DNA of 56,209 nt from Candidatus Omnitrophota bacterium (lineage in GTDB: Bacteria > Omnitrophota > Gorgyraeia > Duberdicusellales > 4484-171), in the NCBI GenBank assembly GCA_043815445.1, contig JBDRIY010000090.1, forward strand, positions 1 to 56,209, in the 5' to 3' direction. Positions 6,184 to 53,332 of this stretch are shown one piece after another; the stretch's first letter is position 1; every line of letters starts with the position of its first letter. The notes beneath the pieces are model-generated. The model had not been told where the DNA came from and made no database searches. It saw only the letters and a program-made list of their open reading frames with translations. Position numbers and translations under genes: made by a program.

Positions 6184-6199
6184 AATCCCAATGCTCAAT

Positions 6200-6329
6200 A
6201 TCAAAAATTAAAAATCAAAATGCAAAATGACATATTAAAATTAAAAATTAAGATGCAAAATACAAGGTAACAAAAGAAGGAGAAATAATTTTGCATTTTA
6301 ATTTGTCATTTTGATTTTTAATTTTTGAT
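6200..6329. repeat. long intergenic hairpin (AAAAT/CAAAAT words); perfect 23-bp inverted repeat
   Basis: atcaaaaattaaaaatcaaaatg (6200-6222) is the exact reverse complement of 6307-6329. The inner part is partly complementary. Confidence 0.9.
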
Positions 6330-6367
6330 TTTTAATATTTTCATTTGAAATTTTTTAGAAATAAAAT

Positions 6368-8107
6368 ATGATTCCCCAACAATTCATAGAAGAGGTTCAA
6401 ACAAGAACCGACATTGTAGAATTAGTTTCAAGCTATGTTCCCTTAAAAAGAGCAGGGAGGAATTTTAGGGCTGTTTGCCCTTTTCACGGCGAAAAAACTC
6501 CTTCGTTTATGGTTAGCCCCCAAAAGCAAATTTTTCACTGTTTTGGCTGTGGAGAGGGAGGGGGAATTTTTCAGTTTTTGACTCTGATTGAAAAAGTAAC
6601 TTTTCCTGAAGCTGTGGAGATATTGGCAAAAAAACTGGGTATGGAAGTGCCTGAGCAAAGGGGACAGCTGAATAAAGAAAAAACTATTCTTTACGAAGCT
6701 ATGGATAAAGCAGCTTTGTTTTTTCATAACAGCCTAAAGAATAATAAAGAAATTTTAGCTTATTTGAATAAAAGGGGCATTGCTGAAGTAACAATTGGTA
6801 AATTTCTTATAGGCTACGCTCCTGGAGGGGTTTCTCTTCTTAACCATATGCGTAAGCTGGGGTTTACCTTGGATATTTTAGAAAAAGTATCTTTAGCTGT
6901 TTCTATAAAAGGAGATTTTCGCGATGTATTTTACGGCCGGATTGTTTTTCCTATTTTTGATCTTCGCGGCCGGATTGTAGGTTTTGGCGCCAGAACTTAT
7001 AAAGATAAGCCTAATTCGCCTAAATATATAAATTCTTTAGAGAACACTCTTTACAGCAAGAGAAACCATCTTTTCGGCCTTAATTTTTCTAAGGAGGATA
7101 TCACAAAACAAGCGGCAATAATCATAACCGAAGGATATTTAGATATGATTACTCCTTTTATGAGAGGGGTAAAGAATATAGCTGCTTCCTTAGGAACAGC
7201 TTTGACTGTTGAGCAGATTAAGCTAATTAAAAGATACGCGGCTTGTGTCATTTTAATGTATGATTCTGATAAAGCAGGGCAAGCCGCCGCTCTAAGGTCT
7301 ATAGATTTACTTTTAGAAAATGGGCTTAAGGTTGAAGTTGTTGGCCTGCCTGCCGGCAGTGATCCTGATTCTTTAGCCAGAGAAAATGGTAAGGATCATT
7401 TTATTAAGTTTGTTCAAGCCAGAGAGAATTTTTTTGAATATAAATTAAGAATTTTGAAGCAGGCCTATGATTCAGCAAGTATAGAAGGCAAGACAAAAAT
7501 TGCTAAAGAGATGCTGGGGACAATAAACAAATTAAACAGTGAGGTTGAAAAATATGAGTATATAAAAAAACTTTCAAGCAGTTTGGGAGTTAGGGAAGAA
7601 ATTATGATTGCTGAGTTTCGCGGCACTTTTTTCAAAAGCAAGGCTTTTCCGGGAAAACGAAGTATTTCAGGCAAAGCAGGGTTAGCTGTTTCAAAAGGTT
7701 CTTTAACGATTACCGAGAAAGTTATTTTTAAATTTATGTTTACCAGCCCTAAAGCTTTTGCTTTAATAAAAAAGAATTTAAAAGAAGATTATTTTGATTC
7801 TACCCTTGCTCGAAGAACAGTTTCTTTTTTCTTTGATACTTATACTAATGTAAATTGTTTTAATCCAAAATTGCTGGGGATAATCGGAGATAAAGAGATC
7901 AGCGGTTTTGTTTCTATGATTTTAATGGATGACAGTATTCCTTTTGACAAAGATACCTTTAAACAGAGCTTGCTTAAACTGCGCAAGAAAGGCGCGGCTC
8001 AAAAAAAGAACAAACTTAAAGAACAAATACAGGAAGCAGAAACAAAGGGAGATAGAAGCAGATTAAAAGAGTTAATTGGCGAATATGGGAAGGTTAATCT
8101 ATTCTAA
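6368..8107 (+). CDS. dnaG: DNA primase
   Basis: Zn-finger CPFHGEKTPSF..HCFGCGEGG. TOPRIM motifs ITEGYLDMI and MYDSDKAGQAAA. Confidence 0.92.
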   Translation: MIPQQFIEEVQTRTDIVELVSSYVPLKRAGRNFRAVCPFHGEKTPSFMVSPQKQIFHCFGCGEGGGIFQFLTLIEKVTFPEAVEILAKKLGMEVPEQRGQLNKEKTILYEAMDKAALFFHNSLKNNKEILAYLNKRGIAEVTIGKFLIGYAPGGVSLLNHMRKLGFTLDILEKVSLAVSIKGDFRDVFYGRIVFPIFDLRGRIVGFGARTYKDKPNSPKYINSLENTLYSKRNHLFGLNFSKEDITKQAAIIITEGYLDMITPFMRGVKNIAASLGTALTVEQIKLIKRYAACVILMYDSDKAGQAAALRSIDLLLENGLKVEVVGLPAGSDPDSLARENGKDHFIKFVQARENFFEYKLRILKQAYDSASIEGKTKIAKEMLGTINKLNSEVEKYEYIKKLSSSLGVREEIMIAEFRGTFFKSKAFPGKRSISGKAGLAVSKGSLTITEKVIFKFMFTSPKAFALIKKNLKEDYFDSTLARRTVSFFFDTYTNVNCFNPKLLGIIGDKEISGFVSMILMDDSIPFDKDTFKQSLLKLRKKGAAQKKNKLKEQIQEAETKGDRSRLKELIGEYGKVNLF

Positions 8108-8119
8108 TTTAAAATTAAA

Positions 8120-8263
8120 TTCTAAATTCCAAATTATAAATTCCAAATGACAAATAAATTCCAATGTCCAATATTCAAATTCCAAACAAAGAAATTCTTT
8201 ATTGGAATTTGGATTTTGAAATTTGTGATTTATTTGGAATTTGATGCTTGAGATTTGGAATTT
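8120..8263. repeat. long intergenic hairpin, AAATTCCAAAT / ATTTGGAATTT word family
   Basis: The left arm is tandem degenerate aaattccaaat words. Loop aaagaaattcttt. The right arm is attggaatttgg...atttggaattt. Confidence 0.85.
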
Positions 8264-8283
8264 TTAACTGAACGAGGTAATGA

Positions 8284-9828
8284 ATGATTAAGAAAAAACT
8301 TTTAGAAAGAAGTGTCGAGCAATTAGTTGATTTGGGCAAGAAAAAGGGTTATCTCACCTACGATGAAATAAACCATTTTATTTCCGAAGAGATAACCGAT
8401 GTTCAGGACTTAGACTCTATTTTTGAGAGTTTAGGCAGTAAAGATGTTGTGGTTTTAGAAACAAAAGAAGTTGTTGATTGGGAAAAGGAAAAGAAGAAAC
8501 AGGCAGCTCCGGTTTCTCAGCCCAGTGATGACCCGGTAAAAATGTACCTTAAGCAAATGGGCCAAATTTCTTTGCTTACCAGGGAAGAGGAAATAAGCCT
8601 GGCTAAAAAAATAGAAGATGCTGAAAGCTCATTAAGAGAAGAAGTATTTTCTACTGATGTGTCGCGCGATACTTTTCTTGAAATCAGCAGGCAGCTGATT
8701 AAAGAGGCCTTGAATCCTGATGATTTTGTCAAAGGCGAGATAAAAAATAAGGAAAAAGAGGTAGCCAGGATAAGAAAACTTTATGGAAAGTTATCCCGAA
8801 TAAAAAAAGTAGAAAGCCAGAAACAAGTACTTAAAGAGTTTAATTTTACTATAGTTATAATCGAAGAGATAATTTCGAAAATTAGGGATATTGTTCGCGA
8901 GATTGAAAAGAAAAGAAGGCTTATCGATAAAATTAAGGAAAGAAATAAGCAGGCTCAAACCGAAAAACGGAGCTTGATAAAGGAAAGAAATAAACTAATA
9001 AAACAGCTGGGATTTGCCGAGAATGAAATTAGAAGCAGGATAAAGGCAATATTAGATAAATCTCGGTATTATAATCAGGCAAAAAGGGCCCTGGTGGAGG
9101 CTAACTTAAGGCTTGTGGTGAGTATAGCAAAAAAGTATGTAAATAGGGGGCTTTCTTTTTTAGACTTAATCCAGGAAGGGAACATGGGGCTTATTAAAGC
9201 GGTTGAGAAGTTTGAATATAAGCGGGGTTATAAATTTTCCACTTACGCTACCTGGTGGATACGCCAGGCCATAACCCGGGCTATAGCTGACCAGGCCCGG
9301 ACAATTAGAATTCCTGTGCATATGACCGAAACTATTAATAAAATAATTAGAATTTCCCGCCTTTTTATTCAAGAAAAGGGGAAGGAGCCTACACCTGAAG
9401 AAATAGCAAAAGAACTTAGGCTTCCAGTTATAAAAATAAAAGATATTTTGAAAGTGTCGCAGCAGCCAATATCAATCCATACTCCTATCGGCGATGAAGG
9501 AGATACTTCTTTCGGAGATTTTATAGAAGATAAAAAAGCGGTTTCACCGGCCAACGCTACTGTATTCTCTATGCTCAAAGAGGAACTTACCCAGGCTATG
9601 GAAAGCCTTACTGATAGAGAAAAAAATATTCTCACTTTAAGGTTTGGGCTTGAAGATGGAAGTTCAAAAACCTTAGAAGAGGTAGGAAGTATTTTTAAGG
9701 TTACCCGTGAGCGGATAAGGCAAATTGAAGCTAAAGCCTTGAAAAAGCTAAGACACCCCAGCCGTTCCCGGCGTCTCCAAACATTCTTGGAATTAACCCT
9801 ATTCAAAGGAAAATTCCACCCCTCGTAA
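8284..9828 (+). CDS. rpoD: RNA polymerase sigma factor RpoD (sigma70)
   Basis: Region 2 [24 protein letters not shown]. Region 4.2 [23 protein letters not shown]. Confidence 0.95.
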
Positions 9829-9845
9829 TTTTCTTAATAAGACAA

Positions 9846-9965
9846 CAGACTGTGCCGTAATATTCGTTTCGTCATTGCCCGGTTTATCCGGGCAATCCAG
9901 AAGGCTTGATTTCATTGATTTCCTGGATTCTCCGCCTTCGCGGAAAATGACAAAAAAGCAGTCTG
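9846..9965. repeat. multi-hairpin spacer between rpoD and gatC
   Basis: Outer CAGACTG (9846-9852) / CAGTCTG (9959-9965). Inner hairpins attgcccgg/ccgggcaat, aatccag/ctggatt, ccgc-cttc-gcgg. Confidence 0.6.
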
Positions 9966-10012
9966 CAAATAAGTTTATAGATTTTTATAGGAGGAGTGGT
10001 ATACTTAAAGCT

Positions 10013-10297
10013 ATGGCAAATAATGAAAATGTAGAGTATACGGCTAATTTGGCGCGGATAGATGTTTCTGAGCGGGAAAAAGCGTCTTTAGGGGAACAGT
10101 TGTCTAAAATCATCGGCTATATTGATAAATTAAAGAAGCTAAATACCGACAACATAGAGCCGATGAGAGGCTTACATACTGAGAGAGATGTTAGGCGTGA
10201 AGACAAGGCCAAGATTTCAGGGGTGAAAGAAGATATCTTGAATAATTCGCCCTTACGTGAAGGAGATTATTTTAAAATCCCTAAGGTTATTGAATAA
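10013..10297 (+). CDS. gatC: Asp/Glu-tRNA amidotransferase subunit C
   Basis: Start trimmed to MANNENVEYTANLARI..., giving the GatC-typical length of 94 aa. Followed by gatA and gatB. Confidence 0.85.
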   Translation: MANNENVEYTANLARIDVSEREKASLGEQLSKIIGYIDKLKKLNTDNIEPMRGLHTERDVRREDKAKISGVKEDILNNSPLREGDYFKIPKVIE

Positions 10298-10331
10298 ACG
10301 CGGATTTTGGAGAACGCGGATGGACGCGGAT
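10298..10331. repeat. ACGCGGAT word x3 at the gatC/gatA junction
   Basis: acgcggat at 10298-10305, 10314-10321 and 10324-10331. The last copy contains the first ATG of the gatA ORF. Confidence 0.85.
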
Positions 10332-11766
10332 GAAAGATATAAATTATATGAATAATTTAATAAATCTTACAGGATTGGAAATTGCTGAAAAGATAAGCTC
10401 CGGAGAATTGGACAAGGGAGATGTTTACTCTTTTTTTAAGCAAAGGATAGAAAAGATAGATTCTTCTCTAAAAAGTTTTGTGGAGGTTTACGAACAGCCG
10501 GTTGAAACTAAAGGCAGTTCTTCTTTAGCCGGAGTGCCTATTGCTATAAAAGATAATATTTGCATAAAGGGAAAAAAGATTACTTGCGCTTCTAAGATTT
10601 TATCTTCGCATACCGCTGTTTATGACGCCGCGGTAATAGAAAGATTAAAAAAAGCCGGTTTAAATATTATTGGCACTGCCAATATGGATGAGTTTGCTTT
10701 TGGTTCATCTACTGAAAATTCCTGCTATGGGCCTTCGAAAAATCCTTGGGATATAACTCGGGTTGTAGGCGGTTCAAGCGGAGGTTCTGCTGCCGCGGTT
10801 GCTGCCAGGCTTGTTCCTTTTGCTTTAGGTTCAGATACCGGAGGCTCAATAAGACAGCCGGCTTGTTTATGCGGAGTTGTGGGTTTTAAACCTACTTACG
10901 GAAGAGTTTCCCGCTATGGCCTGATTGCTTTTGGTTCCAGCTTAGACCAAATTGGGCCGCTTACTACTAATTTCACAGATTGCGCGCATCTTTTAAACAT
11001 ACTTTGCGGCTGTGATGAAAAAGATTCTACTTCTGCTCCGGACAAAGTTCCTGACTTTGCTGAAAGTTTAAAGGATATCGAGCCGGGCTTAAAAATAGGC
11101 CTGCCTAAAGAATATTTTAGCCAGGGTTTAAATCCGGAAGTAAAAGAAGCTATGGCAGAGGTAATAAATATTTTTAAGAAGAAAAAGGCGGAATTTATAG
11201 AAATAAGCCTTCCTCGGACAGAGTATGCTGTTGCTGTTTATTATATTATTGCTTCTTCTGAAGCTAGCGCTAACCTACAAAGGTTTGACGGCGTAAAATA
11301 CGGCTTACGGGCGAAAAGCAGCAGCTTAAAAGAACTTTATTTCAAAACTAGGCAGCAGGGTTTTGGCGATGAGGCTAAGAGGAGAATTTTTTTAGGAACA
11401 TATAGCTTATCCAGCGGTTATTATGATGCTTATTATTTAAAAGCTCTTAAAGCCCGAAGGCTTATAAAAAATGATTTTGACCGGGCTTTTGAAGAAGTAG
11501 ATGTTATTCTTACCCCGACTTCGCCTACTCCAGCTTTTAAAATTGGAGAAAAATCCAGCGATCCTTTAAGTATGTATTTATCGGATATTTATACTATTTC
11601 GGTAAATTTGGCTGGAATTCCGGCAGTATCTTTTCCCTGCGGGTTTACTAAAAGCGGTTTGCCTATAGGCGGGCAATTAATAGCTAAAGAATTTGACGAA
11701 GCCTCACTGATAAGTTTAGGCTTTACTTATCAAAATTGTACTGATTTCCACAAAAAAATACCGTAG
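10330..11766 (+). CDS. gatA: Asp/Glu-tRNA amidotransferase subunit A
   Basis: Amidase signature GGSSGGSAAAVA, DTGGSIRQPA. The start could instead be the ATG at 10348. Confidence 0.93.
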   Translation: MKDINYMNNLINLTGLEIAEKISSGELDKGDVYSFFKQRIEKIDSSLKSFVEVYEQPVETKGSSSLAGVPIAIKDNICIKGKKITCASKILSSHTAVYDAAVIERLKKAGLNIIGTANMDEFAFGSSTENSCYGPSKNPWDITRVVGGSSGGSAAAVAARLVPFALGSDTGGSIRQPACLCGVVGFKPTYGRVSRYGLIAFGSSLDQIGPLTTNFTDCAHLLNILCGCDEKDSTSAPDKVPDFAESLKDIEPGLKIGLPKEYFSQGLNPEVKEAMAEVINIFKKKKAEFIEISLPRTEYAVAVYYIIASSEASANLQRFDGVKYGLRAKSSSLKELYFKTRQQGFGDEAKRRIFLGTYSLSSGYYDAYYLKALKARRLIKNDFDRAFEEVDVILTPTSPTPAFKIGEKSSDPLSMYLSDIYTISVNLAGIPAVSFPCGFTKSGLPIGGQLIAKEFDEASLISLGFTYQNCTDFHKKIP

Positions 11767-11796
11767 GCGGCGGATTTCCCGCCCGATTAATAAAAT

Positions 11797-13215
11797 ATGA
11801 ATAATTTTGAGACAGTAATAGGATTAGAAGTTCATACTCAGTTAGATACGGAATCTAAAATTTTTTGCTCTTGTTCTACTAAGTTTGACAGTCCGCCCAA
11901 TAGCAATATTTGTCCGGTTTGCTGCGGTTACCCGGGAGTTTTGCCGGTTTTTAATAAAAGAACTTTGGAATTAGCAGTAAGAGTTTGTACTGCTTTAGGC
12001 TGTAGAATTAATAAGAGTATATATTTTGAGCGTAAAAATTATTTTTATCCTGATTTACCCAAGGGTTATCAAATTTCACAGTATAAAATGCCTTTAGGGG
12101 AAGACGGTTTTTTGGAAATTCCTTCAGGAAAAAAAATAAAAATAAACAGAGTGCATTTGGAAGAGGACGCCGGAAAATTAATTCATAAGAATGATTATTC
12201 TTTGGTAGATTTTAACCGCGCCGGAACTCCGCTGTTAGAGATTGTTTCTTATCCTGATATCAATAGCCCCCAGGAAGCTTTTGAGTATTTAAGCTATTTA
12301 AAATTAATCCTTAAATATATTAAGGTTTCTGATTGTGATATGGAAAAAGGATCTTTACGCTGTGACGCTAATATATCTTTGCGCTTAAAAGGCGAAACTA
12401 AGTTAGGGGTAAAAGTAGAGTTAAAAAATATGAATACTTTTAGGGGAGTTAGAGCAGGTTTAGAATTTGAAATCAAAAGACAGGCTCAGGCCTTAAATGA
12501 GGGAGAAAAGATAAATATAGAAACTCGGCTTTGGGATGCTCAAGAATTAAAAACTATTGTTATGCGCGGTAAGGAAGAAGCTCATGATTATCGTTATTTT
12601 CCTGAGCCTGATCTTCTTAACTTTTCTGTGTCTGATGAAATTATTGCTAAAGAAAGTATTTTTGTGGGAGAACTGCCTTTAGCTAAAAGAAAAAGGTTTT
12701 TAAAGGATTACAGCCTTGGCGAAAAAGAGGCAGATGTATTTATTGATAATATTTGGCTGGCGGATTTTTTTGAAAAAGCTTGTAAGGTTTATCCTAAGGC
12801 TAAAGAAGTTTCTAATTGGCTTTTGGGGCCGTTTTTAGAGCAGGTAAATAATTTAGAAAAAGGGTTTGATTCGGTAAAAATATCTGTAGAGAACTTCTCT
12901 AAGGTGGCCCAATATTTTTCCCAGGGTAAAATGAATAATTTAGCCGCGAAAAAAGCTCTTTCTTTAAGTATAACCACTAATGAAGACATTGATAAAATTA
13001 TAGAAAGAGAAAAGCTAATTCAAATTTCAGGCGAAGATGAGTTAGATATTTTTATTGAAGAAGCAATCAAAGGCAATTCTAAAGCGGTTAAAGAATACTT
13101 AGAAGGAAAACAACAGGCAATAATGTTTTTAGTAGGCCAGGTTATGAAGAAGACTAAAGGGAAAGCAAATCCTAAAGTAATAAAAGAGATGTTGGAGAGG
13201 AGGTTGAAGAGATGA
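11797..13215 (+). CDS. gatB: Asp/Glu-tRNA amidotransferase subunit B
   Basis: MNNFETVIGLEVHTQL, CPVCCGYPGVLP, RVHLEEDAGK. Confidence 0.95.
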   Translation: MNNFETVIGLEVHTQLDTESKIFCSCSTKFDSPPNSNICPVCCGYPGVLPVFNKRTLELAVRVCTALGCRINKSIYFERKNYFYPDLPKGYQISQYKMPLGEDGFLEIPSGKKIKINRVHLEEDAGKLIHKNDYSLVDFNRAGTPLLEIVSYPDINSPQEAFEYLSYLKLILKYIKVSDCDMEKGSLRCDANISLRLKGETKLGVKVELKNMNTFRGVRAGLEFEIKRQAQALNEGEKINIETRLWDAQELKTIVMRGKEEAHDYRYFPEPDLLNFSVSDEIIAKESIFVGELPLAKRKRFLKDYSLGEKEADVFIDNIWLADFFEKACKVYPKAKEVSNWLLGPFLEQVNNLEKGFDSVKISVENFSKVAQYFSQGKMNNLAAKKALSLSITTNEDIDKIIEREKLIQISGEDELDIFIEEAIKGNSKAVKEYLEGKQQAIMFLVGQVMKKTKGKANPKVIKEMLERRLKR

Positions 13216-14450
13216 AAATGTATAAAAAGATACTCGATACTCGATACACGATACTCGTTTTAGGAATTTTAATTATGGCTTTGTTCTTCTACCATGCGGG
13301 AATTTCTTTTGCCCAGGAGAAGGATAAATTGTTTAGAGAACTTGATGTATTTGCTGAGAGCCTGGCAGTTATTGAGAAAAAATATGTAGAAGATGAACCG
13401 CCCCAAGATTTAATCTACGGAGCGATGAAAGGCTTACTTTCAACTCTGGATTCTTACAGCCAGTTTTTAACTCCTGATGATTTTAAAAATCTTATTGTAG
13501 AAACTGAAGGAAAGTTCGGCGGCTTGGGTATTGAAATTACCATAAGAGATTCAATGCTTACTATTATTTCGCCGATAGAAGACACGCCGGCATGGAAAGC
13601 AGGTATTGAGCCCGGCGATATTATAGTTAAAATAGACGGAGAATTAACTAAAGATATTACTTTGAATGAGGCTGTCAAGAAATTAAGAGGCCAGCCGCAG
13701 ACAGAGGTTACCTTAACCGTTTTTAGAGAAAAAGACCGGATAGTCAAGGATATCAAGATTATGAGGGGTATAATTAAAATACAGGATATAAAAAGAGCCC
13801 TTTTTTTAGAAGAGAATATCGGCTATGTGAAGATAGGCGAGTTTAGGGAAACTACCTCTAAAGATTTAGGTAAAGCTTTGGAGGGCTTAGAAAAACAAGG
13901 GCTGAAAGCCTTAATTGTTGATGTTCGCAATAATCCCGGAGGTTTGCTTATCTCGTCAATAGATATATCAAGCCGGTTTTTAAAAGACGGAGATGTAGTA
14001 GTATCTACTAAATCAAGGAGCGAGCCTGAAAGAATATATAAGTCTGTTTCTCTGGGCCAAAAATATATAGATATTCCTATAGTAGTATTGGTTAATAAAG
14101 GCAGCGCTTCAGCAAGTGAAATCCTTGCCGCGGCTTTAAGAGACAATAAACGGGCTATTCTTTTGGGAGAAACAACCTTTGGCAAAGGTTCAGTTCAAAC
14201 AATTATTCCTTTGTCTGACGGGTCTGCCTTGCGCCTCACCACTTCTAAATATTATACCCCCGCGGGCGTTAGCATTCACGATAAAGGCATTATACCGGAT
14301 ATTATAGTAAACAAAGAAGTTGTCGAAGAAGGCCAAAGAGATGTTTTTGAAGAGATTATAGAAGAAAAAAAAGATTTTGATTATAAAAAAGATTATCAAA
14401 TAGTGAGGGCTTTGGATTTGATAAAAGGACTATTAGTTTTGGAAAAATAA
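13212..14450 (+). CDS. C-terminal processing peptidase (S41) with PDZ domain
   Basis: PDZ GGLGIEI..GDIIVKIDG. Catalytic region NKGSASASEILAAAL and TFGKGSVQ. N-terminal signal anchor. ATGA overlap with gatB. Confidence 0.9.
   Translation: MKMYKKILDTRYTILVLGILIMALFFYHAGISFAQEKDKLFRELDVFAESLAVIEKKYVEDEPPQDLIYGAMKGLLSTLDSYSQFLTPDDFKNLIVETEGKFGGLGIEITIRDSMLTIISPIEDTPAWKAGIEPGDIIVKIDGELTKDITLNEAVKKLRGQPQTEVTLTVFREKDRIVKDIKIMRGIIKIQDIKRALFLEENIGYVKIGEFRETTSKDLGKALEGLEKQGLKALIVDVRNNPGGLLISSIDISSRFLKDGDVVVSTKSRSEPERIYKSVSLGQKYIDIPIVVLVNKGSASASEILAAALRDNKRAILLGETTFGKGSVQTIIPLSDGSALRLTTSKYYTPAGVSIHDKGIIPDIIVNKEVVEEGQRDVFEEIIEEKKDFDYKKDYQIVRALDLIKGLLVLEK
13229..13256 (+). repeat. GATACTC 7-mer x4 embedded in frame in the ctp N-terminus
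   Basis: gatactc gatactc gatacac gatactc, translated as LDTRYTIL. 13236-13255 is identical to 17884-17903. Confidence 0.85.
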
Positions 14451-14457
14451 AGTTTTA

Positions 14458-14606
14458 AATAAATCCGAAAAAATGAATAAACACGAAATCCGAAACAAAT
14501 CCGAAATTCGAATGTTCAAATTTTCAAAACGAAGAATATTGTTTTGGTTATTTGAATTTTGATTATTCGAATTTGTTTCGGATTTCGGATTTCGATATTC
14601 GGATTT
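14458..14606. repeat. long intergenic hairpin, AAATCCGAAA / TTTCGGATTT word family (copy 1)
   Basis: Left arm aaatccgaaa..cgaaatccgaaacaaatccgaaattcgaa. Right arm ttcgaatttgtttcggatttcggatttcgatattcggattt. Confidence 0.9.
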
Positions 14607-14617
14607 AAATTAAATAT

Positions 14618-15610: not shown

Positions 15611-15611
15611 A

Positions 15612-17384: not shown

Positions 17385-17447
17385 GATACTCGATGCTCGA
17401 TGCTCGATATTCGATGCTGGATACTCGATGCTTGATACTTGATGCTG
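17385..17447 (+). repeat. tandem 7-mer array GATRYTN x9
   Basis: gatactc gatgctc gatgctc gatattc gatgctg gatactc gatgctt gatactt gatgctg. Confidence 0.9.
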
Positions 17448-17472: not shown

Positions 17473-17883
17473 ATGAAAACAGTTTATATAGAGATAAAAA
17501 CAAAGGGCAATAGCGATATTGTTGATCTTACTTCCGAATTAAGGAAGATAGTAGATAAAGAAGAACTTAAAGATGCTATCATTTTTTTAACTGTTTTAGG
17601 TTCGACAGCAGCTCTTACCACTATGGAATATGAACCTGGTTTAGTTAAAGACCTAAAAGCCGCGTTAGAAAGAGTTCTCCCTTACAAAAAAGATTATGTT
17701 CATAATTCTACATGGGCTGATGATAACGGGCACTCGCACCTGAGAAGTTCTTTTATAAAAACTGAGATGTTTGTATCAGTAACCCAGAGTAAGCTTGATT
17801 TAGGAATTTGGCAGCAGGTAGTTTTAATAGACTTTGATACTCGCCCCCGAGATAGAAAAATTGTAGTGAAGATAGTAGAGTAG
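17473..17883 (+). CDS. YjbQ/UPF0047 family protein (secondary thiamine-phosphate synthase family)
   Basis: Family-typical LTVLGSTAALTTMEYEPGLVKDL and DDNGHSHLRSSF motifs. Confidence 0.8.
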   Translation: MKTVYIEIKTKGNSDIVDLTSELRKIVDKEELKDAIIFLTVLGSTAALTTMEYEPGLVKDLKAALERVLPYKKDYVHNSTWADDNGHSHLRSSFIKTEMFVSVTQSKLDLGIWQQVVLIDFDTRPRDRKIVVKIVE

Positions 17884-17958
17884 ATACTCGATACACGATA
17901 CTTGATAGTTCGTAGAAACAAATATCGAAAATCGAGTATATAGTATTGAGTATCGAGA
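17884..17958. repeat. hairpin of GATACTC words and their complement GAGTATC
   Basis: gatactcgatacacgatacttgatagtt ... atcgagtatatagtattgagtatcgag. Confidence 0.85.
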
Positions 17959-18795: not shown

Positions 18796-18930
18796 GAAAT
18801 TCCAAATAACAAATTCCAAATCACAAACAAATTCCAATTACCAAAATTCCAATGACCGAAACAAGAAATTTTTCATTTGGAATTTGATTATTGGAATTTA
18901 TTTGTAATTTGATGCTTGGAATTTGAAATT
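18796..18930. repeat. long intergenic hairpin, AAATTCCAAAT word family (copy 2)
   Basis: Left arm gaaattccaaataacaaattccaaatcacaaacaaattccaattaccaaaattccaatg. Right arm catttggaatttgattattggaatttatttgtaatttgatgcttggaatttg. Shares aatttgatgcttg with 8240-8252. Confidence 0.9.
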
Positions 18931-18948
18931 TAAAAATAGGGGGTAGAG

Positions 18949-19432: not shown

Positions 19433-19592
19433 AAATCCGAAACAAAATTAATAAAAATCCGAAATTCGAAATCCGAAGCACGAAACAAATTCGAAATTCA
19501 AAATGAAAAAAATCCAAAATAAAAAACTGAGTTTATTAACATTTCGAATTTTCTTCATTTGTTTCGGATTTCGATATTCGGATTTCGGATTT
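19433..19592. repeat. long intergenic hairpin, AAATCCGAAA word family (copy 2)
   Basis: Shares atttgtttcggatttcg and gatttcgatattcggattt with 14458-14606, and ttcgaattttc..ttcatttgtttcg and aaatccgaagcacgaaa with 29516-29642. Confidence 0.9.
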
Positions 19593-27768: not shown

Positions 27769-27777
27769 ACACAAATT

Positions 27778-27830
27778 AAAGTTCACTAAATAAGCAATGC
27801 TTATTTAGTGAACTTTAGCTGTTTTTTTTT
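27778..27830 (+). terminator. intrinsic terminator
   Basis: 18-bp stem aaagttcactaaataagc / gcttatttagtgaacttt, followed by a T9 run. Confidence 0.75.
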
Positions 27831-29515: not shown

Positions 29516-29642
29516 TTTTAAATTCGAAATCCGAAACAAATTTGAAATACGAAATTCTAAACGGATATTAAATTCATTAAAATTTCGAATTTTCCCCATT
29601 TTCTTCATTTGTTTCGAATTTCGGATTTCGTGCTTCGGATTT
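29516..29642. repeat. long intergenic hairpin, AAATCCGAAA word family (copy 3)
   Basis: Left arm aaattcgaaatccgaaacaaatttgaaatacgaaatt. Right arm tttcgaatttcggatttcgtgcttcggattt. Confidence 0.9.
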
Positions 29643-29707
29643 ACTGTTCTTTAGGCCAATTAGAATAATTAAACAGTGATAAGTATATTAAATAAGGAGC
29701 GTTAACT

Positions 29708-36512: not shown

Positions 36513-36591
36513 CAATTAGCAATTTTCAATTAGCATTTAGCAGTTTAAAATGAAAGAGAAGAAATATAAAGAAATTGATAACTGCTAATTG
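36513..36591. repeat. intergenic hairpin, CAATTAGCA / TGCTAATTG words
   Basis: caattagca x2 plus tttagcag on the left, ctgctaattg on the right. Confidence 0.8.
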
Positions 36592-36627
36592 TATATTTTG
36601 CATTGCGAGCAAAGCGGGGAGGAGGAT

Positions 36628-42267: not shown

Positions 42268-42287
42268 AGATACGTGATACGTTGAAG

Positions 42288-42376
42288 GGTTGCGTAGCTG
42301 GAAACGGGTGTCGTCAATCGTTGAACGTATTTTCAAACGCAACCGTAAGACGGTTTACGTTTCGAGCTACGCAACC
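42288..42376. repeat. intergenic hairpin with a 19-bp stem (1 mismatch)
   Basis: ggttgcgtagctggaaacg (42288-42306) pairs with cgtttcgagctacgcaacc (42358-42376). Confidence 0.85.
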
Positions 42377-42392
42377 GAATAACGAATTATTT

Positions 42393-45738: not shown

Positions 45739-46760
45739 GTTTTCAAAAAGAAAAAAGCGAAATAATTGACTGGGCTCGGCGATTAAACCAAAAGGGTTTA
45801 GTCACCGCCAAAAGCGGGAATATTTCATATAAGCTGGATGATAAAAAAATCCTTATAACCGCTCACGACTCTTATTTGGGATATTTGGAAGATGAAGATA
45901 TTCTTTTAGCGGATTTAAAAGGAGATAATTCTCAAAATTCAGGCAAGGGGACAAGCGAACAGTTAATGCATTTAAGTATTTATAATAAGTTTGAAGATAA
46001 TAAAGTAATTTTGCACGCTCATTCGCCTTTTACTACGGCCTTTTTTCATTATTTTAAAGAGCTGGAAACATTTTCTTATGAAACTAAATTTTATTTAGGC
46101 AAAATAACCGCTCTTGAACAAAATACTCCAACCGTAACCGAGATAGAGCCATTATTGAGTGCTTTAGAAAAAAGCAATATTGTAGTTTTAAAGCATCACG
46201 GAGTAGTTGCTATGGGAAAGGATTTTAAAGAAGCTTTTAGTTTAATTGAGCTGTTGGAGGAGCAGGCAAAGGTTAACCTTTTGGTGAAAGGTAAATTTCA
46301 AATTACAAATTCCAAATTACAAACAAATGACAATTACCAAAATCCCAATATCCAAAATGAAAGCGTAAAAAAGCAAGATGTTAAAAAATACAAGATGCTT
46401 TCGGCTGAACATGCTCAGAGGCTTACGGATTTGGTTAATAGCGATTCTCAGGCTCAGGAGCTTGGGCAAAAATATGGTTTAACTTGCGATTTGGCGGTTA
46501 AGAATCAGGAAAATGGCGAGGTTATGCGTTTTTGTTATGAAAAGGGAAAAATTATAAAAACTGATACCAGTGAAGAAGCGGATTTTGTAATTATAGGCAA
46601 AGAAGATATCTTAAAAAAGGTTTTTAATAAAGAAATAGACCCTTTTGTCGCTTCTACTCAAGGTAAAGTAAAAACAAAGGGCGATTTTGCTAAAATGAGC
46701 CGTTGGTATCCGGTTATGGTGAGGACTTTTAAACTTTGGGAACAAGCGCCGGTGGAATAA
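45735..46760 (+). CDS. class II aldolase/adducin-domain protein (MtnB/Ald2/FucA-like) fused to a C-terminal SCP2 domain
   Basis: SGNISYK, SEQLMHLSIY, LHAHSP, LKHHGVVAMG. The C-terminal DFVIIGKEDILKKVFNKEIDPFVASTQGKVKTKGDFAKM is SCP2-like. Confidence 0.7.
   Translation: MSFQKEKSEIIDWARRLNQKGLVTAKSGNISYKLDDKKILITAHDSYLGYLEDEDILLADLKGDNSQNSGKGTSEQLMHLSIYNKFEDNKVILHAHSPFTTAFFHYFKELETFSYETKFYLGKITALEQNTPTVTEIEPLLSALEKSNIVVLKHHGVVAMGKDFKEAFSLIELLEEQAKVNLLVKGKFQITNSKLQTNDNYQNPNIQNESVKKQDVKKYKMLSAEHAQRLTDLVNSDSQAQELGQKYGLTCDLAVKNQENGEVMRFCYEKGKIIKTDTSEEADFVIIGKEDILKKVFNKEIDPFVASTQGKVKTKGDFAKMSRWYPVMVRTFKLWEQAPVE
46305..46353 (+). repeat. half-copy (left arm only) of the AAATTCCAAAT hairpin family, read in frame as an interdomain linker
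   Basis: acaaattccaaattacaaacaaatgacaattaccaaaatcccaatatcc compared with 18809-18857 is about 44/49 identical. Encodes ..TNSKLQTNDNYQNPNIQ.. Confidence 0.85.
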
Positions 46761-46767
46761 AAATACG

Positions 46768-46849
46768 CATAGGGCATAGTGCATGGAGCATAGGGCAAGA
46801 ATGTGAATTTTTTTATTTTTCGCTATGCCCTTTGCGCTTTGCTTGCTTG
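46768..46849. repeat. intergenic hairpin, CATRGNG 7-mer x4 plus complement
   Basis: cataggg catagtg catggag cataggg ... cgctatgccctttgcgctttgc. Confidence 0.8.
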
Positions 46850-50393: not shown

Positions 50394-50406
50394 ACAAAGC
50401 CTTAAA

Positions 50407-50445
50407 TAAAAAAAGCGCGTTGTTAATAACAACGCGCTTTTTTTA
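50407..50445. terminator. bidirectional intrinsic terminator between convergent genes
   Basis: A7, agcgcgttgtt aat aacaacgcgct, T7. Confidence 0.85.
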
Positions 50446-50462
50446 TCAGACAGAATTTTTAA

Positions 50463-50958: not shown

Positions 50959-51543
50959 ATGAAGATGGTTGTTCAGAGAGAAAAAAGAGAATTAAGGCAT
51001 AAATTACTGCAGCGCCTTTTATCCTTGACTCAAAAAGAGTTAAAAAGGAGGAGTGCAAATGTTGAAGAACGATTACTTAGCTTACCTATATATAAACAGG
51101 CAAAAACAGTTACGGGGTATTATCCTTTAAAAGGAGAAGTAGATATTTTAGGAGTGATTAGGAAGGCAATAGGCAATAATAAGCGGGTTTGTTTTCCGGT
51201 AATGGATTTAAAAACAAAGGAACTCAGGGCTTTTGAAGTTTCTAACCTGGATAAAGATTTTGTTTTAGGGCCCTGGGGAGTTAAAGAACCGGATACAAAT
51301 AGAGTTAGAGAGGTAGATATTAAAAAGATAGATATGGTAATTGTTCCCGGCCTTGCTTTTGATCGGAAAAAGAATCGGTTAGGCAGGGGCGCTGGTTTTT
51401 ATGACCGCTTTTTAAAAAAGCTATCTCCCTCTGTTAAAAAAGCAGGGGTTGGATTTGAATTCCAAATCTTAGAAAGCCTTCCTATTCACCTACCATCTGA
51501 TCAAAAAGTCGACATCGTTGTGAGCGAAAATTCAGTTATTTAA
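50959..51543 (+). CDS. 5-formyltetrahydrofolate cyclo-ligase
   Basis: VPGLAFDRKKNRLGRGAGFYDRFL. Family-typical length. Confidence 0.85.
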   Translation: MKMVVQREKRELRHKLLQRLLSLTQKELKRRSANVEERLLSLPIYKQAKTVTGYYPLKGEVDILGVIRKAIGNNKRVCFPVMDLKTKELRAFEVSNLDKDFVLGPWGVKEPDTNRVREVDIKKIDMVIVPGLAFDRKKNRLGRGAGFYDRFLKKLSPSVKKAGVGFEFQILESLPIHLPSDQKVDIVVSENSVI

Positions 51544-51552
51544 ACTAAAGGC

Positions 51553-51622
51553 GATCACAGACAAAAATCAAAGATAGTTATAAATAAAAATATTTGTGAT
51601 TATCTGTTTTTAATCTGTGATC
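51553..51622. repeat. intergenic hairpin, GATCACAG / CTGTGATC words
   Basis: gatcacaga (51553-51561) is the exact complement of tctgtgatc (51614-51622). The inner arms are partly complementary. Confidence 0.8.
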
Positions 51623-51646
51623 ATCTGCGCGTAAAAGGGGGATATT

Positions 51647-53197
51647 ATGGTTATTCTTTATATGATAGCTGGTATCATTGCCGGTATAATTTTAGGATGG
51701 TGGCTGGGCAAAATTTTTGAAAAGAATAAATTAAAAAAGATTAAAGAAGATGCTCAAAAGTTAGTCCAAGAAGCTAAGTCTAAAGCTGAAGAAATTGTCC
51801 GAAAAGCGGATTTAGACGCTAAAGAAATGCTTTATAAGCTTAGAGTTGATTTTGAAAAGCAAAATTCTTATAAAAAGGAAGAGTTTATCCAGTTAGAAAA
51901 AAGACTTTTGCAAAGGGAAGGGAATTTAGAAAAAAGGCTTGATTTTATTCAGAGCCGAGAATCTGAATTGCGCCGGCGGGAAGACCGCTTGAAAATCTTG
52001 ATTGATGACGCCGACAAAAAGAATCAAGATTTAGCTAAGCTGATAGAAGAAGAAAAGGAAAAGTTGAAAAGTATTTCTTCTTTAACTTCTCAAGAAGCAA
52101 AAGAGCTTTTGCTTAAAAGGTACGAGGAAGAATTACGCTCGGATAAAGCAAGAATGATTAAAGAGATGGAAGATACTGTTAGGGAAGAAGCTGACGGAAA
52201 AGCAAGGGAGATAGTTTCTCAGGCTATTCAAAGATGCGCGGTAGAACATACTACTGAAACTACTGTAAGCGTTGTGCCTCTTCCTAATGATGAAATAAAG
52301 GGTAGGATTATAGGCAGGGAAGGCCGTAACATTAGGGCTTTTGAAATGGCGACCGGGGTAGATTTGATAATTGATGATACTCCGGAAGCAGTTAGTGTTT
52401 CAGGGTTTGACCCCATACGAAGAGAGATTGCCCGTATTGCTTTGGGGAAATTAGTGCAGGATGGAAGGATTCATCCGGCAAGAATAGAAGAAGTTGTAGA
52501 AAAAACTAAGCAAGAGTTTGATAAAAAACTTACAGAAGAAGGAAAGTCCGCTTCTTTTGACGTAGGAATTCACAACCTTCATCCGGAATTAATAAAGCTA
52601 TTAGGTAAATTAAAATATCGCACAAGTTTTGGCCAGAACGCCCTTCAGCATTCAAAAGAAGTTTCTATTATTATGGGTATTTTGGCTTCAGAACTTGAAA
52701 TGGATGCTCGGATTGCTAAAAGAGCAGGGCTTTTGCATGACATAGGAAAAGCTATTGATCATCAGGTGGAAGGAACCCATGCCCAGATAGGATCAGATTT
52801 ATTGAAAAAATATGGAGAAAATGAGATAGTTATAAACGCGGCTCAGTCACACCATGAAGAAGTAGAATTCAGCTCTCTTTATTCTCTTCTCGCGCTAGTT
52901 GCTGACGCTGTTTCCGCTGCCCGGCCCGGCGCGCGCCGGGAAACTTTAGAAACTTATGTAAAAAGATTAAGGCAGCTTGAGACTATTGCCAACTCTTTGG
53001 AAGGGGTGGACAAAAGCTTTGCTATTCAGGCCGGAAGGGAGATAAGAGTAATTGTTCAGCCGAACAAGGTTAAAGACAATGAAATTCATCTTCTTGCTCA
53101 TGAATTAAAGAAAAAGTTGGAACAGGAAATGGATTATCCGGGAAATATTAAAATTACCATAATAAGAGAAACCCGGGCTGTTGATTACGCGAAGTAA
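51647..53197 (+). CDS. rny: ribonuclease Y
   Basis: N-terminal TM helix, coiled coil, KH motif [17 protein letters not shown] motif LLHDIGKA. Confidence 0.95.
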
Positions 53198-53293
53198 ACG
53201 TAACACGTAACACGTAACACGTAACACGTAACACGTCAACCCTTACTTACTGTTTTCAAAGACGTGTTACTTGATACGTGCTGCGTGATACGC
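53198..53293. repeat. intergenic hairpin, ACGTAAC 7-mer x5 plus complement
   Basis: acgtaac x5 (53198-53232) then acgtcaac. Right arm gacgtgttacttgatacgtgctgcgtgatacgc (53261-53293). Confidence 0.85.
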
Positions 53294-53332
53294 ATTTTTG
53301 ATGTTGTTTATTTTTTCGATGAGAGGTAAAAT

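Follow-up and report, generated by a model that had tools for sequence, protein, structure and literature searches.

Between many genes of the window, a 56,209-nt contig of a Candidatus Omnitrophota bacterium, lie long hairpins whose arms consist of tandem short words, the words differing from spacer to spacer while the plan is retained. The question raised by this locus is whether these hairpins are RNA structures kept by selection, products of local sequence growth or repeats dispersed among genomes.

Fold strength and period of the hairpins

The long intergenic hairpins in this Omnitrophota genome are real. An inverted-repeat scan yielded 11 repeats scoring at least 50, all 11 within intergenic spacers, vs. 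0.13 on average in 15 shuffles keeping dinucleotides segment by segment, and 15 vs. 1.6 at a score of at least 40; upon folding, 17 of 19 hairpins had a z of -3.2 or below, with only 0-3 of 200 shuffles folding equally well in each case (Table 1). The preliminary description had assigned at least 16 junctions to a plan of word, loop and inverted word; in fact 18 junctions in the window have hairpins folding much more strongly than shuffled sequence, but the arms are made of tandem words at only about 11-12 of them. The hairpins at 16996, 27777, 37068, 45192, 50406 and 43363 are plain near-perfect palindromes, 2-3 of which look like ordinary bidirectional terminators, while 9846-9965 has strong structure (z -5.0) but no word construction, and 36513-36597 is a weak member at best. 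Likewise, the perfect 23-bp arms described for 6200-6329 turned out to be 54-nt arms, 78-85% complementary in several pairing registers.

The recurring 7-nt period noticed earlier proved to be specific, as TRF detected 25 period-7 arrays (mean of 3.1 in shuffles) and 10 period-14 arrays (mean of 0.8), with periods 8-12 at shuffle level. Many different words coexist within one genome, in the window as well as in L120, and the idea of a recurring architecture with differing words was upheld. The word hairpins are not canonical terminators, most having no T tract and none being flagged in a terminator scan of the window. In agreement with the earlier view excluding REP/BIME, ERIC and CRISPR, an Rfam scan of the window at gathering thresholds found one tRNA and nothing else, a permissive scan returned solely sub-threshold eukaryotic miRNA-precursor models, and blastn of the hairpins vs. 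5,426 E. coli genomes, plasmids and phages gave 0 matches. We also noticed the pairing of a 5' arm purely of A and C with a 3' arm purely of G and U, a composition that leaves no misfolding inside an arm.

Table 1. Hairpins, related arrays and excluded terminators (window coordinates; z, folding relative to shuffles)
Feature	Coordinates	Strand	Context and evidence
Word hairpin	6197..6339	.	NIF3-like gene/dnaG spacer; score 106; z -7.40; TRF period-7 arrays; AAAAATY/AAAATSA words; singleton in window
AAATTCC-family foldback element	8124..8263	.	Between dnaG and rpoD; z -7.04
GATACTC x4	13229..13257	+	In N-terminal coding region of ctpA-like gene; TRF, sequence
AAATCCG-family foldback element	14458..14606	.	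ctpA-like gene/tsaD spacer; z -7.32; arm HMM 14479-14531 (+) E 1.4e-7, 14607-14542 (-) E 2e-9
Tandem-only GATRCTC x9 array	17385..17446	+	No inverted partner; TRF period 7, 8.9 copies; spacer folds at shuffle level, z +0.4
GATACTC-word hairpin	17883..17954	.	UPF0047 gene/RNase T-like gene; z -6.47; both arms period 7
AAATTCC-family foldback element	18797..18931	.	RNase T-like gene/Lrp/AsnC gene; z -5.11; promoter-like TTGATA-17-TATAAT at 18754-18782, immediately upstream
AAATCCG-family foldback element	19455..19592	.	Lrp/AsnC gene/aminotransferase gene; z -6.19; arm HMM 19455-19519 (+) E 1.4e-9, 19593-19551 (-)
Terminator-like, outside the class	27777..27817	+	Perfect 19-bp hairpin then T9; z -9.89; spacer after it 197 nt
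AAATCCG-family foldback element	29520..29643	.	3' of AMP-binding gene; z -3.24; arm HMM 29520-29561 (+), 29643-29598 (-) E 2e-10
Weak CAATTAGCA-word hairpin	36513..36597	.	Score 43; z -1.72, 13/200 shuffles equal; marginal
Hairpin opening with GATACGT x2	42270..42390	.	Inverted repeat; z -6.43; overlaps mechanically called TTG start of amidohydrolase gene
Single in-frame AAATTCC-type arm	46290..46360	+	Inside gene; TRF arrays 46293-46358; sequence, translation
CATAGGG-word hairpin	46766..46849	.	5' of aldehyde dehydrogenase gene; z -3.33; TRF period-7 arrays 46767-46797 and 46817-46842
Ordinary bidirectional intrinsic terminator, outside the class	50406..50446	.	A7, GC stem, U7; z -6.89; spacer after it 512 nt
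GATCACAG hairpin	51553..51622	.	5' of RNase Y gene; z -6.94
ACGTAAC-word hairpin	53206..53292	.	rny/ymdB spacer; z -7.52; left arm near-perfect (TRF period 7, 6.3 copies, 97% matches), right arm degenerate (TRF 82% matches at period 14)

The AAATTCC and AAATCCG families

Five of the window's hairpins (8124, 14458, 18797, 19455 and 29520) fall into a pair of related, dispersed families, AAATTCC and AAATCCG. Within the first, 8124-8263 and 18797-18931 align at 82% identity over their full length despite lying at unrelated junctions, and homologues of 8124-8263 were found on viral contigs (L318 and L325); within the second, 14458, 19455 and 29520 are alignable with one another, and the arm is a conserved sequence of ~65 nt. 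A metagenome scan with AAATYCGAAATYCGAAA matched at least 120 contigs, ranging in GC from 0.29 to 0.69 and sharing a higher-order arm consensus; a three-substitution variant unit, AAGCACG, recurs in register in 12 contigs, and GAAGCACGAAA, the variant unit of 19455..19592, in 17 contigs (16 of them other than the window). With an arm HMM we recovered 23 complete elements of arm plus inverted arm, the window's three included, and 12 further complete elements came from IMG/VR viral contigs, some of which may be misclassified cellular DNA. The elements measure 100-290 nt, comprising two inverted ~65-nt arms with a variable core between them and no coding content. Their ends are sharp (AAAT...ATTT), with complementarity of 96% at the last base and 17-39% beyond, and no direct target-site duplication was seen by eye at the element ends. 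As judged by exact-protein look-ups, the host MAGs are labeled Planctomycetes (L161), Aminicenantes (L158) and Cloacimonadota (L122), in addition to the Omnitrophota of the window, these phylum labels being dependent on MAG binning. The preliminary view of a single RNA-structure class accordingly had to be modified, as at least five hairpins are copies of dispersed repeat families found in other phyla.

Copies also occur in frame within an NRPS adenylation domain (L158 and its orthologue L106), a DnaE2-like gene (L084) and a membrane/TPR protein (L114), and the lone arm at 46290..46360 encodes a linker, KFQITNSKLQTNDNYQNPNIQ, joining the Aldolase_II and SCP2 domains of its protein (Pfam residues 9-181 and 236-322). 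The metagenome elements lie at 17 co-directional, 4 convergent and 3 divergent junctions, matching the background (236/62/73), and have no junction preference.

Two alternatives can be weighed against these data. The first is that the hairpins arose by assembly or amplification error, e.g. chimeric inverted joins; low-complexity palindromes do assemble poorly and the contig is a singleton in databases, but the genes on both sides are intact, run in the same direction and keep their synteny with relatives, and the same families are present in independent JGI, ENA, NCBI and IMG/VR assemblies, disposing of any confinement to this contig and leaving this explanation with almost no credence. The second holds that they act as DNA, either as heptads to which a ribbon-helix-helix protein or the like binds cooperatively or through cruciform extrusion or nucleoid organization. 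The omega repressor binds 7-bp heptads, and the present arrays resemble omega/ParG-type operators in their 7-bp unit and in combining direct with inverted copies; in addition, the AAATCCG arm is conserved across hosts of widely differing GC. Nevertheless, each of the many words would require its own binding protein in one genome, no recurring candidate partner gene lies beside the elements, and copies are present inside ORFs, all of which renders DNA-level sites highly improbable.

Related junctions and a possible role in RNA

The closest relatives, with RpoD at 73-82% identity, have no hairpin scoring at least 50 in their syntenic DNA, and the corresponding junctions overlap or span just 8-41 nt. 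As dnaG and rpoD overlap by 8 nt in L001-L003, 8124-8263 has inserted into what was ancestrally the 3' end of dnaG. In L002, the spacer orthologous to 6197..6339 is 41 nt without a hairpin, and those orthologous to 17883..17954 and 17385..17446 are 8 nt and 11 nt, respectively. These comparisons suggest that hairpin gain is lineage-specific; in databases, the species is represented by this contig only. At the ctpA-tsaD junction, the L002 spacer is 25 nt while L003 has a hairpin of another word, AGACGAN; at the AsnC-aminotransferase junction, L002 has a hairpin of NNGCGTA words, and at the HTH-tRNA-binding junction the relatives too have a hairpin, of unrelated sequence. The other-word hairpins at ctpA-tsaD and AsnC-aminotransferase could equally mean that a hairpin is selected for there.

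Such selection is central to the proposal that these are stem-loops maintained in polycistronic mRNAs as RNase III/RNase Y sites, protective 5'/3' hairpins (SRPS) or leaky attenuators, with tandem words simply being how such hairpins evolve, a proposal we consider possible but rather doubtful. The hairpins lie 3-40 nt 5' of the next start codon with no room for a promoter, so they must be transcribed within the neighboring mRNAs; and because essential genes (rpoD, tsaD) are directly downstream, they cannot be efficient terminators. Besides this obligatory transcription and the unrelated hairpins at the three junctions above, a role in RNA would fit with the RNase Y gene in the window, which is flanked by two hairpins, with the A/C-only and G/U-only arms that preclude misfolding, with the setting of operon stoichiometry by intergenic stem-loops elsewhere (PMC8219983) and with the heptamer repeats of Xanthomonas, mostly transcribed and near stop codons (PMC4692102). 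Several findings argue otherwise: 1) G-U pairs number 34 on the plus vs. 26 on the minus strand with about equal summed folding energies, so that nothing marks the sense-strand RNA as selected, and G-U does not exceed A-C in it; 2) the antisense strand of 18797-18931 folds better by 16 kcal/mol; 3) family members show few compensatory changes, which are inseparable from register shifts; 4) the wider set follows no arm-order rule (10 A/C-first vs. 11 G/T-first) and does not avoid divergent spacers; 5) the same elements are found inside ORFs and in unrelated contexts; and 6) most of these junctions are hairpin-free in L002. A role as RNase processing sites is possible, but gained no support in this analysis.

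Probable foldback repeats and their nearest known systems

We believe, with moderate confidence, that the word hairpins represent short palindromic (foldback) repeats without coding capacity, whose arms are degenerate arrays of ~7-nt words. The AAATCCG and AAATTCC families, if no others, are dispersed and are likely to be mobile. By analogy, they would best be read as selfish foldback repeats akin to MITEs or Rickettsia palindromic elements. We surmise that new sites are reached by copying with trans-acting machinery that does not duplicate the target, perhaps via a hairpin or single-stranded DNA intermediate; Pfam revealed no transposase within the window, nor was there a recurrent protein family across 626 ORFs neighboring the elements. 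Following insertion, the arms may gain, lose and homogenize units via replication slippage, for which 7 nt may be a favored step in many bacteria, and slippage at this step would explain why the words differ while the plan is constant. The specific enrichment of periods 7 and 14 and the unequal repeat purity of the two arms of 53206-53292 are consistent with slippage. If they influence how RNA is processed or how stable it is, that influence would be incidental or acquired by later co-option. The one-copy hairpins (6197, 17883, 42270, 46766, 51553 and 53206) may belong to other such families or be local growth, the mobility of the word hairpins with a single copy in the window, seven in all, being assumed.

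A purely local origin for the whole set, in which a short palindrome or a terminator gives rise to a hairpin, both arms lengthen by heptamer slippage and quasi-palindrome template switching carries changes between them, seems unlikely to us. It accords with the specificity of the 7-nt period, the many words per genome (window and L120), tandem-only arrays such as 17385-17446, the unequal arms of 53206, bidirectional-terminator-like cores flanked by word arrays (e.g. L191) and the polymerase slippage proposed for heptanucleotide repeats (PMC4679880; PMC4692102), but explains neither the recurrence, in at least four phyla and viral contigs, of 65-nt arms sharing one non-repetitive consensus and sharp AAAT...ATTT ends nor the 82%-identical pair at unrelated window junctions. 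Local growth is viable solely for the singleton hairpins.

As to the earlier remark that no known class fits, there is a precedent in the inverted heptamer pairs of Xanthomonas (PMC4692102), whose arrays are, by analogy, the nearest published counterpart of foldback repeats of this kind. Xanthomonas GGGAATC and Nostoc GGGGAYT are intergenic heptameric repeats (Rehm et al. 2015, PMC4692102); in Xanthomonas, 70-75 of ~185 arrays per genome form convergent pairs capable of a stem-loop, the arrays being mostly between co-directional ORFs near stop/start codons, transcribed, of unknown function and differing in length between relatives, while Nostoc has few inverted pairs (PMC4692102). Both systems comprise intergenic tandem 7-nt units, in part inverted. 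However, each Xanthomonas genome has a single, G-rich word, investigated for its formation of G-quadruplexes, whereas here there are many words, mostly A/T-rich and without G-tracts, with arms of up to 50-75 nt that include a conserved non-repetitive part, and a family that spans phyla and enters ORFs. Heptanucleotide repeats are an over-represented class of bacterial simple repeats for which 7-nt slippage has been proposed (PMC4679880), and cyanobacterial STRR heptanucleotide and other long simple repeats are cited there and in PMC4692102 (from Mazel 1990 and Mrazek 2007). STRRs resemble the present arrays as tandem heptanucleotides over-represented in intergenic DNA, but they are mainly direct arrays unrelated in sequence to the window hairpins. 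An STRR array reportedly lies inside an RNase P RNA gene, going by the title of a 1997 paper by Vioque.

The Rickettsia palindromic elements (RPE) of Ogata et al., from 2000, are reportedly ~100-150 nt without coding capacity; they are not known outside Rickettsia or with a tandem-heptamer build, and no mechanism is known for their mobilization. By description only, they share with the present elements a non-coding palindrome found intergenically and in frame within protein-coding genes, but the elements here are heptamer-built and occur in several phyla. Drosophila foldback (FB) transposons are eukaryotic and kilobase-scale, with target-site duplications. The likeness is in architecture only, i.e. 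long inverted terminal arms of degenerate short tandem units around a variable middle, and the elements here are 100-290 nt with no duplication seen. REP sequences are 20-40 nt, G+C-rich, tagged by GTAG or CGTC and dependent on a RAYT gene, REPINs are inverted doublets forming ~100-nt hairpins, and classical MITEs are marked by target-site duplications and by a parent insertion sequence (PMC3116915, PMC3333891, PMC3184786). All are short, dispersed, intergenic, non-autonomous palindromes, but unlike them the present elements have 65-nt A/T-rich heptamer-array arms, no duplication and no linked gene. Terminators and SRPS stem-loops (PMC8219983) likewise lie right after stop codons in same-strand gene runs; in contrast, the word hairpins have no G+C-rich stem with a U tract, are 3-10 times longer, have essential genes 3-20 nt on and are separate from the window's canonical terminators (27777 and 50406). 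The best-characterized word hairpins are not unique to this contig, the same elements recurring on viral contigs and in several further phyla of uncultured bacteria.

Long hairpins built from heptamer words

The window is a stretch of bacterial chromosome with 36% G+C and a GC skew that is positive throughout, in which the + strand holds nearly all genes from about 4.7 kb onward; the genes are of the housekeeping kind (dnaG, rpoD, gatCAB, a ctpA-like S41 protease, tsaD, era, an RNase T-like exonuclease, a Lrp/AsnC regulator, fatty-acid synthases, hipA, rny-ymdB and dxs). By its RpoD, the window belongs to Candidatus Omnitrophota, the nearest GTDB genomes (L001-L004) having RpoD identities of 82, 78, 73 and 71%. 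An einverted-style scan for inverted repeats (match +3, mismatch -4, gap -7, loop <=40) yielded 11 hairpins scoring >=50, all of them intergenic, vs. a mean of 0.13 in 15 shuffles that preserved dinucleotides and treated each gene and spacer separately; at a score >=40, there were 15 vs. 1.6. On folding, 17 of 19 candidate hairpins had z values of -3.2 to -12.6, with only 0-3 of 200 shuffles folding as well, and folding of whole spacers agreed with that of the individual hairpins. Local folding in 200-nt windows (Lfold) was rejected as a detector, as any 200 nt gave about -40 kcal/mol without discrimination. Tandem Repeats Finder (TRF) reported 25 arrays of period 7 and 10 of period 14 (shuffle means 3.1 and 0.8), spanning 1005 bases vs. 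about 77 in shuffles, while periods 8-12 were at shuffle level.

These data bear out the preliminary description in that the long intergenic hairpins are real and beat nearly all shuffled controls, that the 7-nt period is specifically enriched, and that all word hairpins lie between co-directional genes. The recurring plan of a word array facing its inverted copy also stood, but about 11-12 junctions follow it, not the 16 or more claimed. The hairpin at 6200-6329, described as having perfect 23-bp arms, in fact has arms of 54 nt that are 78-85% complementary in several pairing registers; the 9846-9965 spacer is structured as proposed but not word-built, and the hairpin at 36513 is a weak member of the class. 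At least 8 different words occur in 56 kb, including AAATCCG, AAATTCC, GATACTC and ACGTAAC, with a G3 tract in CATAGGG only, and an all-against-all comparison of spacers revealed two multi-copy groups (table). Since the two arms of the 53206-53292 hairpin differ in purity (97% vs. 82%), the heptamer arms appear to slip independently.

The word hairpins begin 1-26 nt past a stop codon and end 3-40 nt ahead of the next start codon (20 nt for rpoD, 3-11 nt for tsaD). Because no promoter fits into so short a gap, expression of the downstream genes, which include essential ones, must come from transcripts crossing the hairpin, which argues against efficient termination; we infer that word hairpins are co-transcribed with the neighboring genes. 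A canonical intrinsic terminator has a short G+C-rich stem, a loop of 3-8 nt and a U tract immediately after. In agreement with the earlier claim that the elements are not of this type, a terminator scan of 6000-20000 flagged no spacer hairpin (13 sites vs. 11.1 expected), and among word hairpins T5 follows only those ending at 8263 and 53292. Six or seven plain near-perfect palindromes are also present (16996, 27777, 37068, 45192, 50406 and 43363), two of which look like ordinary terminators (table). The best promoter-like match of its region lies directly upstream of the hairpin at 18797-18931, which would make this hairpin part of the Lrp/AsnC 5' leader.

As to curated families, tRNA-Leu was the sole match in the window to Rfam 15 at gathering thresholds, and at E <= 1 only eukaryotic miRNA-precursor models appeared (24-32 bits vs. 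thresholds of 68-195). Searches by blastn of plasmids, phages and 5,426 E. coli genomes gave no match, and the stated lack of likeness to REP, BIME and ERIC, which those E. coli genomes carry, holds to the extent that the low-complexity filter did not hide matches. In CRISPR arrays, direct repeats of 23-50 nt alternate at regular intervals with unique spacers about as long; with contiguous 7-nt units and inverted halves, the elements are no such array, as had been noted. CsrA-type decoys were rejected since GGA is present in several words and absent from many, as were integron attC sites, the neighbors being syntenic housekeeping genes and not cassettes.

Features of the window and of related contigs
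Feature	Location	Remarks
AAATTCC-family hairpins	8124-8263; 18797-18931	82% identity over full length
AAATCCG-family hairpins	14458-14606; 19455-19592; 29520-29643	common AAATCCG arm
Singleton word hairpins	6197; 17883; 42270; 46766	
Singleton word hairpins at both rny junctions	51553-51622; 53206-53292	
rny (RNase Y), then ymdB	51647-54118	
GATRCTC x9	17385-17446	tandem-only array; TRF
GATACTC x4		inside coding sequence, ctpA-like N-terminus; TRF and sequence
AAATTCC-type arm, in frame	46290-46360	in coding sequence; encodes aldolase-SCP2 linker
Class II aldolase-SCP2 ORF	45735-46760	domains joined by 24-aa linker of repeat-element sequence
Weak hairpin	36513-36597	z -1.7
Post-rpoD spacer	9846-9965	complex multi-branch structure, z -5.0, G+C-rich sub-hairpins
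TTG start mechanically called for gatC	9875	inside post-rpoD structure
Terminator-like palindrome	50406-50446	A7, GC stem, U7; 512-nt spacer after
Terminator-like palindrome	27777-27817	T9 after hairpin; 197-nt spacer follows
Promoter-like match	18754-18782	TTGATA-17-TATAAT, 11/12
Perfect 27-bp inverted repeat (CCTGATTACAACCCCGGAGGTTGTAAT)	37068-37135	14-nt loop, z -12.6; most stable hairpin of window, not word-built; 4 nt upstream of MFS transporter gene
Inverted repeat ...CCCCGTTAGAGAT / ATCTCTAACGGGG...	27862-27900 / 27996-28034	arms 95 nt apart, in 315-nt leader of AMP-binding gene; spacer z -7.7
Similar CCCCGTTAGAAA palindrome	L045 21324-21366	another Omnitrophota contig
Near-perfect hairpins, core AATAGGGACA...TGTCCCTATT	16996-17043; L037 11691-11760; L046 3106-3211	three Omnitrophota genomes
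Split hipA	39530-39853; 39859-40719	Couple_hipA; HipA_C
AAGGATT-word hairpin	L003 3410-3471	related genome
G/T-rich tandem array (TTGGGATTT/TTGGAAATT units)	L005 about 8760-8960	more distant Omnitrophota genome; no inverted partner; directly upstream of rpoD
Orthologous copies in NRPS genes	L106 5032-5149; L158 11220-11372	
1532-aa ORF	L084 812-5410	ImuB-like Y-family polymerase domain and DnaE2-like polymerase
Perfect G+C-rich palindrome, about 200 nt	L182 13543-13834	nested in centre of AAATCCG element
Related 112-nt perfect palindrome	L182 5346-5457	elsewhere on same contig

Several other features of the window deserve mention. The palindrome core shared by three Omnitrophota genomes could be a phylum-conserved protein-binding or terminator palindrome, and the repeat in the AMP-binding leader may represent an operator or regulatory RNA that is conserved but lacks an Rfam match. 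GatC comprises 94 aa in the related genome L002 vs. 140 aa as called in the window, and the true gatC start probably lies about 130 nt downstream of the called TTG. The split hipA is preceded by a 433-nt spacer, which may harbor a small hipB. The rny-ymdB order is also that of Bacillus.

Junctions in relatives and spread beyond the contig

The lineage of the window has gained these elements at tight junctions. L002 keeps the gene order with only 25 nt between ctpA and tsaD and 8 nt between the UPF0047 and RNase T genes, the dnaG and rpoD genes of L001-L003 share 8 nt, and the syntenic DNA of these three relatives (10-21 kb) has no hairpin scoring >=50. The element at dnaG-rpoD sits within sequence that corresponds to the dnaG 3' end of the relatives, with DnaG ending in ...EYGKVNLF* in the window vs. 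...EYGKIDKEVRNG* in L002, and the ancestral ribosome-binding region is still recognizable downstream of the hairpin. A search for strain variants found the AsnC protein on no other recorded contig, with the nearest relatives at most 83% identical; the species is known in the protein collection from this contig alone.

The main rival explanation holds that these are RNA hairpins selected for processing, stability or attenuation. Their transcription is unavoidable, and they recur at the same junctions in relatives: hairpins of AGACGAN words (ctpA-tsaD) and of AAGGATT words occur in L003, and one of NNGCGTA words at the AsnC-aminotransferase junction of L002, so these junctions share the architecture across genomes although their words are unrelated. 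However, L002 lacks hairpins at most of these junctions, some copies lie inside ORFs, and no sense-strand bias was found in G-U pairs (34 vs. 26) or in folding energy. In addition, the junction types of word hairpins are those of the background among the listed metagenome loci, a neutral distribution in the wider set. Compensatory changes between family members amounted to 1-5 pairs, a count confounded by register shifts in the repetitive arms.

The elements are not confined to this contig; such confinement is what the preliminary description had named as counting against it. AAATYCGAAATYCGAAA matches at least 120 metagenome contigs, with G+C of 0.29-0.69 among the matches listed, many of which lie within long hairpins of the form (GAAATCC)n ... 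(GGATTTC)n; several listed contigs bear additional hairpins of other heptamers, as exemplified by L120, where five of these, spaced over 7.8 kb, separate housekeeping genes of the same direction. At least 31 word hairpins scoring >=50 were counted among the listed metagenome loci, with a period of 7 or 14 in 24 and of 8 in 6. An A/C-first, G/T-first arm order, considered as a terminator-like A-tract/U-tract mark, is true of the window but fails among the listed loci, where the order is balanced (10 A/C-first vs. 11 G/T-first).

AAATCCG arms share a higher-order consensus of ~65 nt (AAATCCGAAGCACGAAATCCGAAATYCGAAACAAATTCAAAAT.CAAATG..CAAAATTCAAAAC), in which the three-substitution variant unit AAGCACG recurs in register in at least 12 contigs and GAAGCACGAAA in at least 17. 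A hidden Markov model (HMM) of the arm gave at least 103 matches among the listed contigs and at least 23 complete elements of arm plus inverted arm (100-290 nt, the three of the window included), and IMG/VR contigs (56-68% G+C) contributed another 12; full-length relatives of the AAATTCC family are found on the viral contigs L318 and L325. The ends are sharp, complementarity dropping from 96% at the final AAAT/ATTT base to 17-39% outside it. The AAATCCG arrays constitute a discrete element, more than a common word. A purely local origin by slippage and quasi-palindrome template switching may hold for the singleton hairpins, but it cannot account for conserved 65-nt arms. Exact-protein look-ups assigned host MAG labels of Planctomycetes RBG_16_55_9 (L161), Aminicenantes (L158) and Cloacimonadota (L122), and of Paceibacterota for L120. 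The palindromes of contig L182 seem to form a second palindromic repeat family that targets hairpin centres.

Copies also occur in frame within genes: 51 codons within an NRPS adenylation domain (L158, the same site being conserved in the related L106), 34 codons within a DnaE2-like gene (L084), a membrane/TPR protein gene (L114), a site near the N-terminus of an OEP, and the arm at 46290-46360 of the window. By their sequence alone, tandem AAATCCG and AAATTCC are free of stops in all six frames, a property that probably lets in-ORF copies survive. In the L106 copy, a small G+C-rich hairpin (GTCCCCGACGGGGAC) replaces part of the left arm, and the arms are thus not kept complementary in the NRPS setting. 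The L084 insertion lies between the polymerase core and finger domains. At 45735-46760, the repeat may have fused two once-separate genes, aldolase and SCP2.

Likeness to known repeats

The families are discrete, with defined ends, a specific 7-nt periodicity, copies in ORFs, and an occurrence in several phyla and on viral contigs; we consider the word elements to be, most likely, small non-autonomous foldback repeats whose arms are heptamer arrays and which resemble MITEs, REPINs and Rickettsia palindromic elements. We infer that they are copied by machinery acting in trans without target duplication, perhaps via a hairpin or single-stranded intermediate, and that the arms turn over by slippage. 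The closest published description concerns the GGGAATC heptamers of Xanthomonas. Each genome has about 185 arrays, and 70-75 of these are paired in inverted orientation so that a stem-loop could form; most lie close to stop codons where the flanking ORFs are aligned, and they are transcribed, without an assigned function (PMC4692102). In many bacteria heptanucleotides outnumber other long simple repeats, and an explanation by polymerase slippage has been proposed (PMC4679880). Like the Xanthomonas repeats, the window hairpins comprise tandem 7-nt units with the same word on opposite strands, between aligned ORFs and near stop or start codons; unlike them, they have neither a G-rich G-quadruplex unit nor a single dominant word per genome. 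Those publications describe neither many A/T-rich words in one genome nor long arms of which a conserved portion is non-repetitive, nor a distribution over several phyla and viral contigs, nor copies in frame within genes. The claim of no match to any known class was thus right for curated families, CRISPR and REP but not in implying no precedent, given the inverted heptamers of Xanthomonas (PMC4692102). In the literature, element strings matched only primers and shRNAs, with nothing relevant on hairpins or repeats of Omnitrophota.

In classical MITEs, a related autonomous element encodes a transposase with the same ends. The at least 23 and 12 further elements resemble MITEs in having terminal inverted repeats, with ~65-nt arms matched by one HMM in both orientations, but differ in that no target-site duplication was seen by eye in the flanks of 23 elements; a possible TTAAY duplication at dnaG-rpoD comes from a single comparison with distant relatives. 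No transposase was found in the window (Pfam), and all-against-all blastp of 626 neighboring ORFs on at least 120 contigs detected no recurrent partner gene, transposases included. REP, BIME and REPIN sequences are imperfect palindromes rich in G+C, 20-40 nt long and headed by GTAG or CGTC, in genomes that also have a RAYT gene; the window arms, by contrast, are A/T-rich, measure 50-75 nt and start with AAAT, and the window has no Y1/RAYT domain. Rickettsia palindromic elements are palindromic non-coding repeats also found in frame in protein-coding genes, as are the insertions in L158/L106, L084, L114 and the window, but sequence homology to these families is unlikely from host range and composition.

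We tentatively speculate, holding it to be possible more than probable, that the AAATCCG and AAATTCC families represent an undescribed class of mobile DNA, namely foldback elements with ~65-nt heptamer arms that pass between phyla without target duplication by means of an enzyme specific for hairpins or single strands. The elements would move among Omnitrophota, Planctomycetota, Acidobacteriota/Aminicenantes and Cloacimonadota, possibly on viruses, and would colonize tight gene junctions and even ORFs.

Implications for compact genomes

The inverted-pair form of heptamer repeats has been reported before without explanation, and in the window and related contigs one hairpin type of this form, if not more, is a discrete element with defined ends and a conserved arm, present in several uncultured phyla and on viral contigs and able to lie in frame within genes. 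If the mobile-class reading is true, heptamer arms might explain the common inverted heptamer arrays elsewhere, e.g. in Xanthomonas. A concrete sequence model permits a census of MAGs and phylogenetic profiling for the moving enzyme, and flags gene-calling errors such as false fusions, wrong start codons and inserted peptide loops. Omnitrophota are ultra-small bacteria with compact, operon-dense genomes; if the elements also shape mRNA processing, they would offer a cheap way of uncoupling genes that were once translationally coupled, such as dnaG and rpoD.
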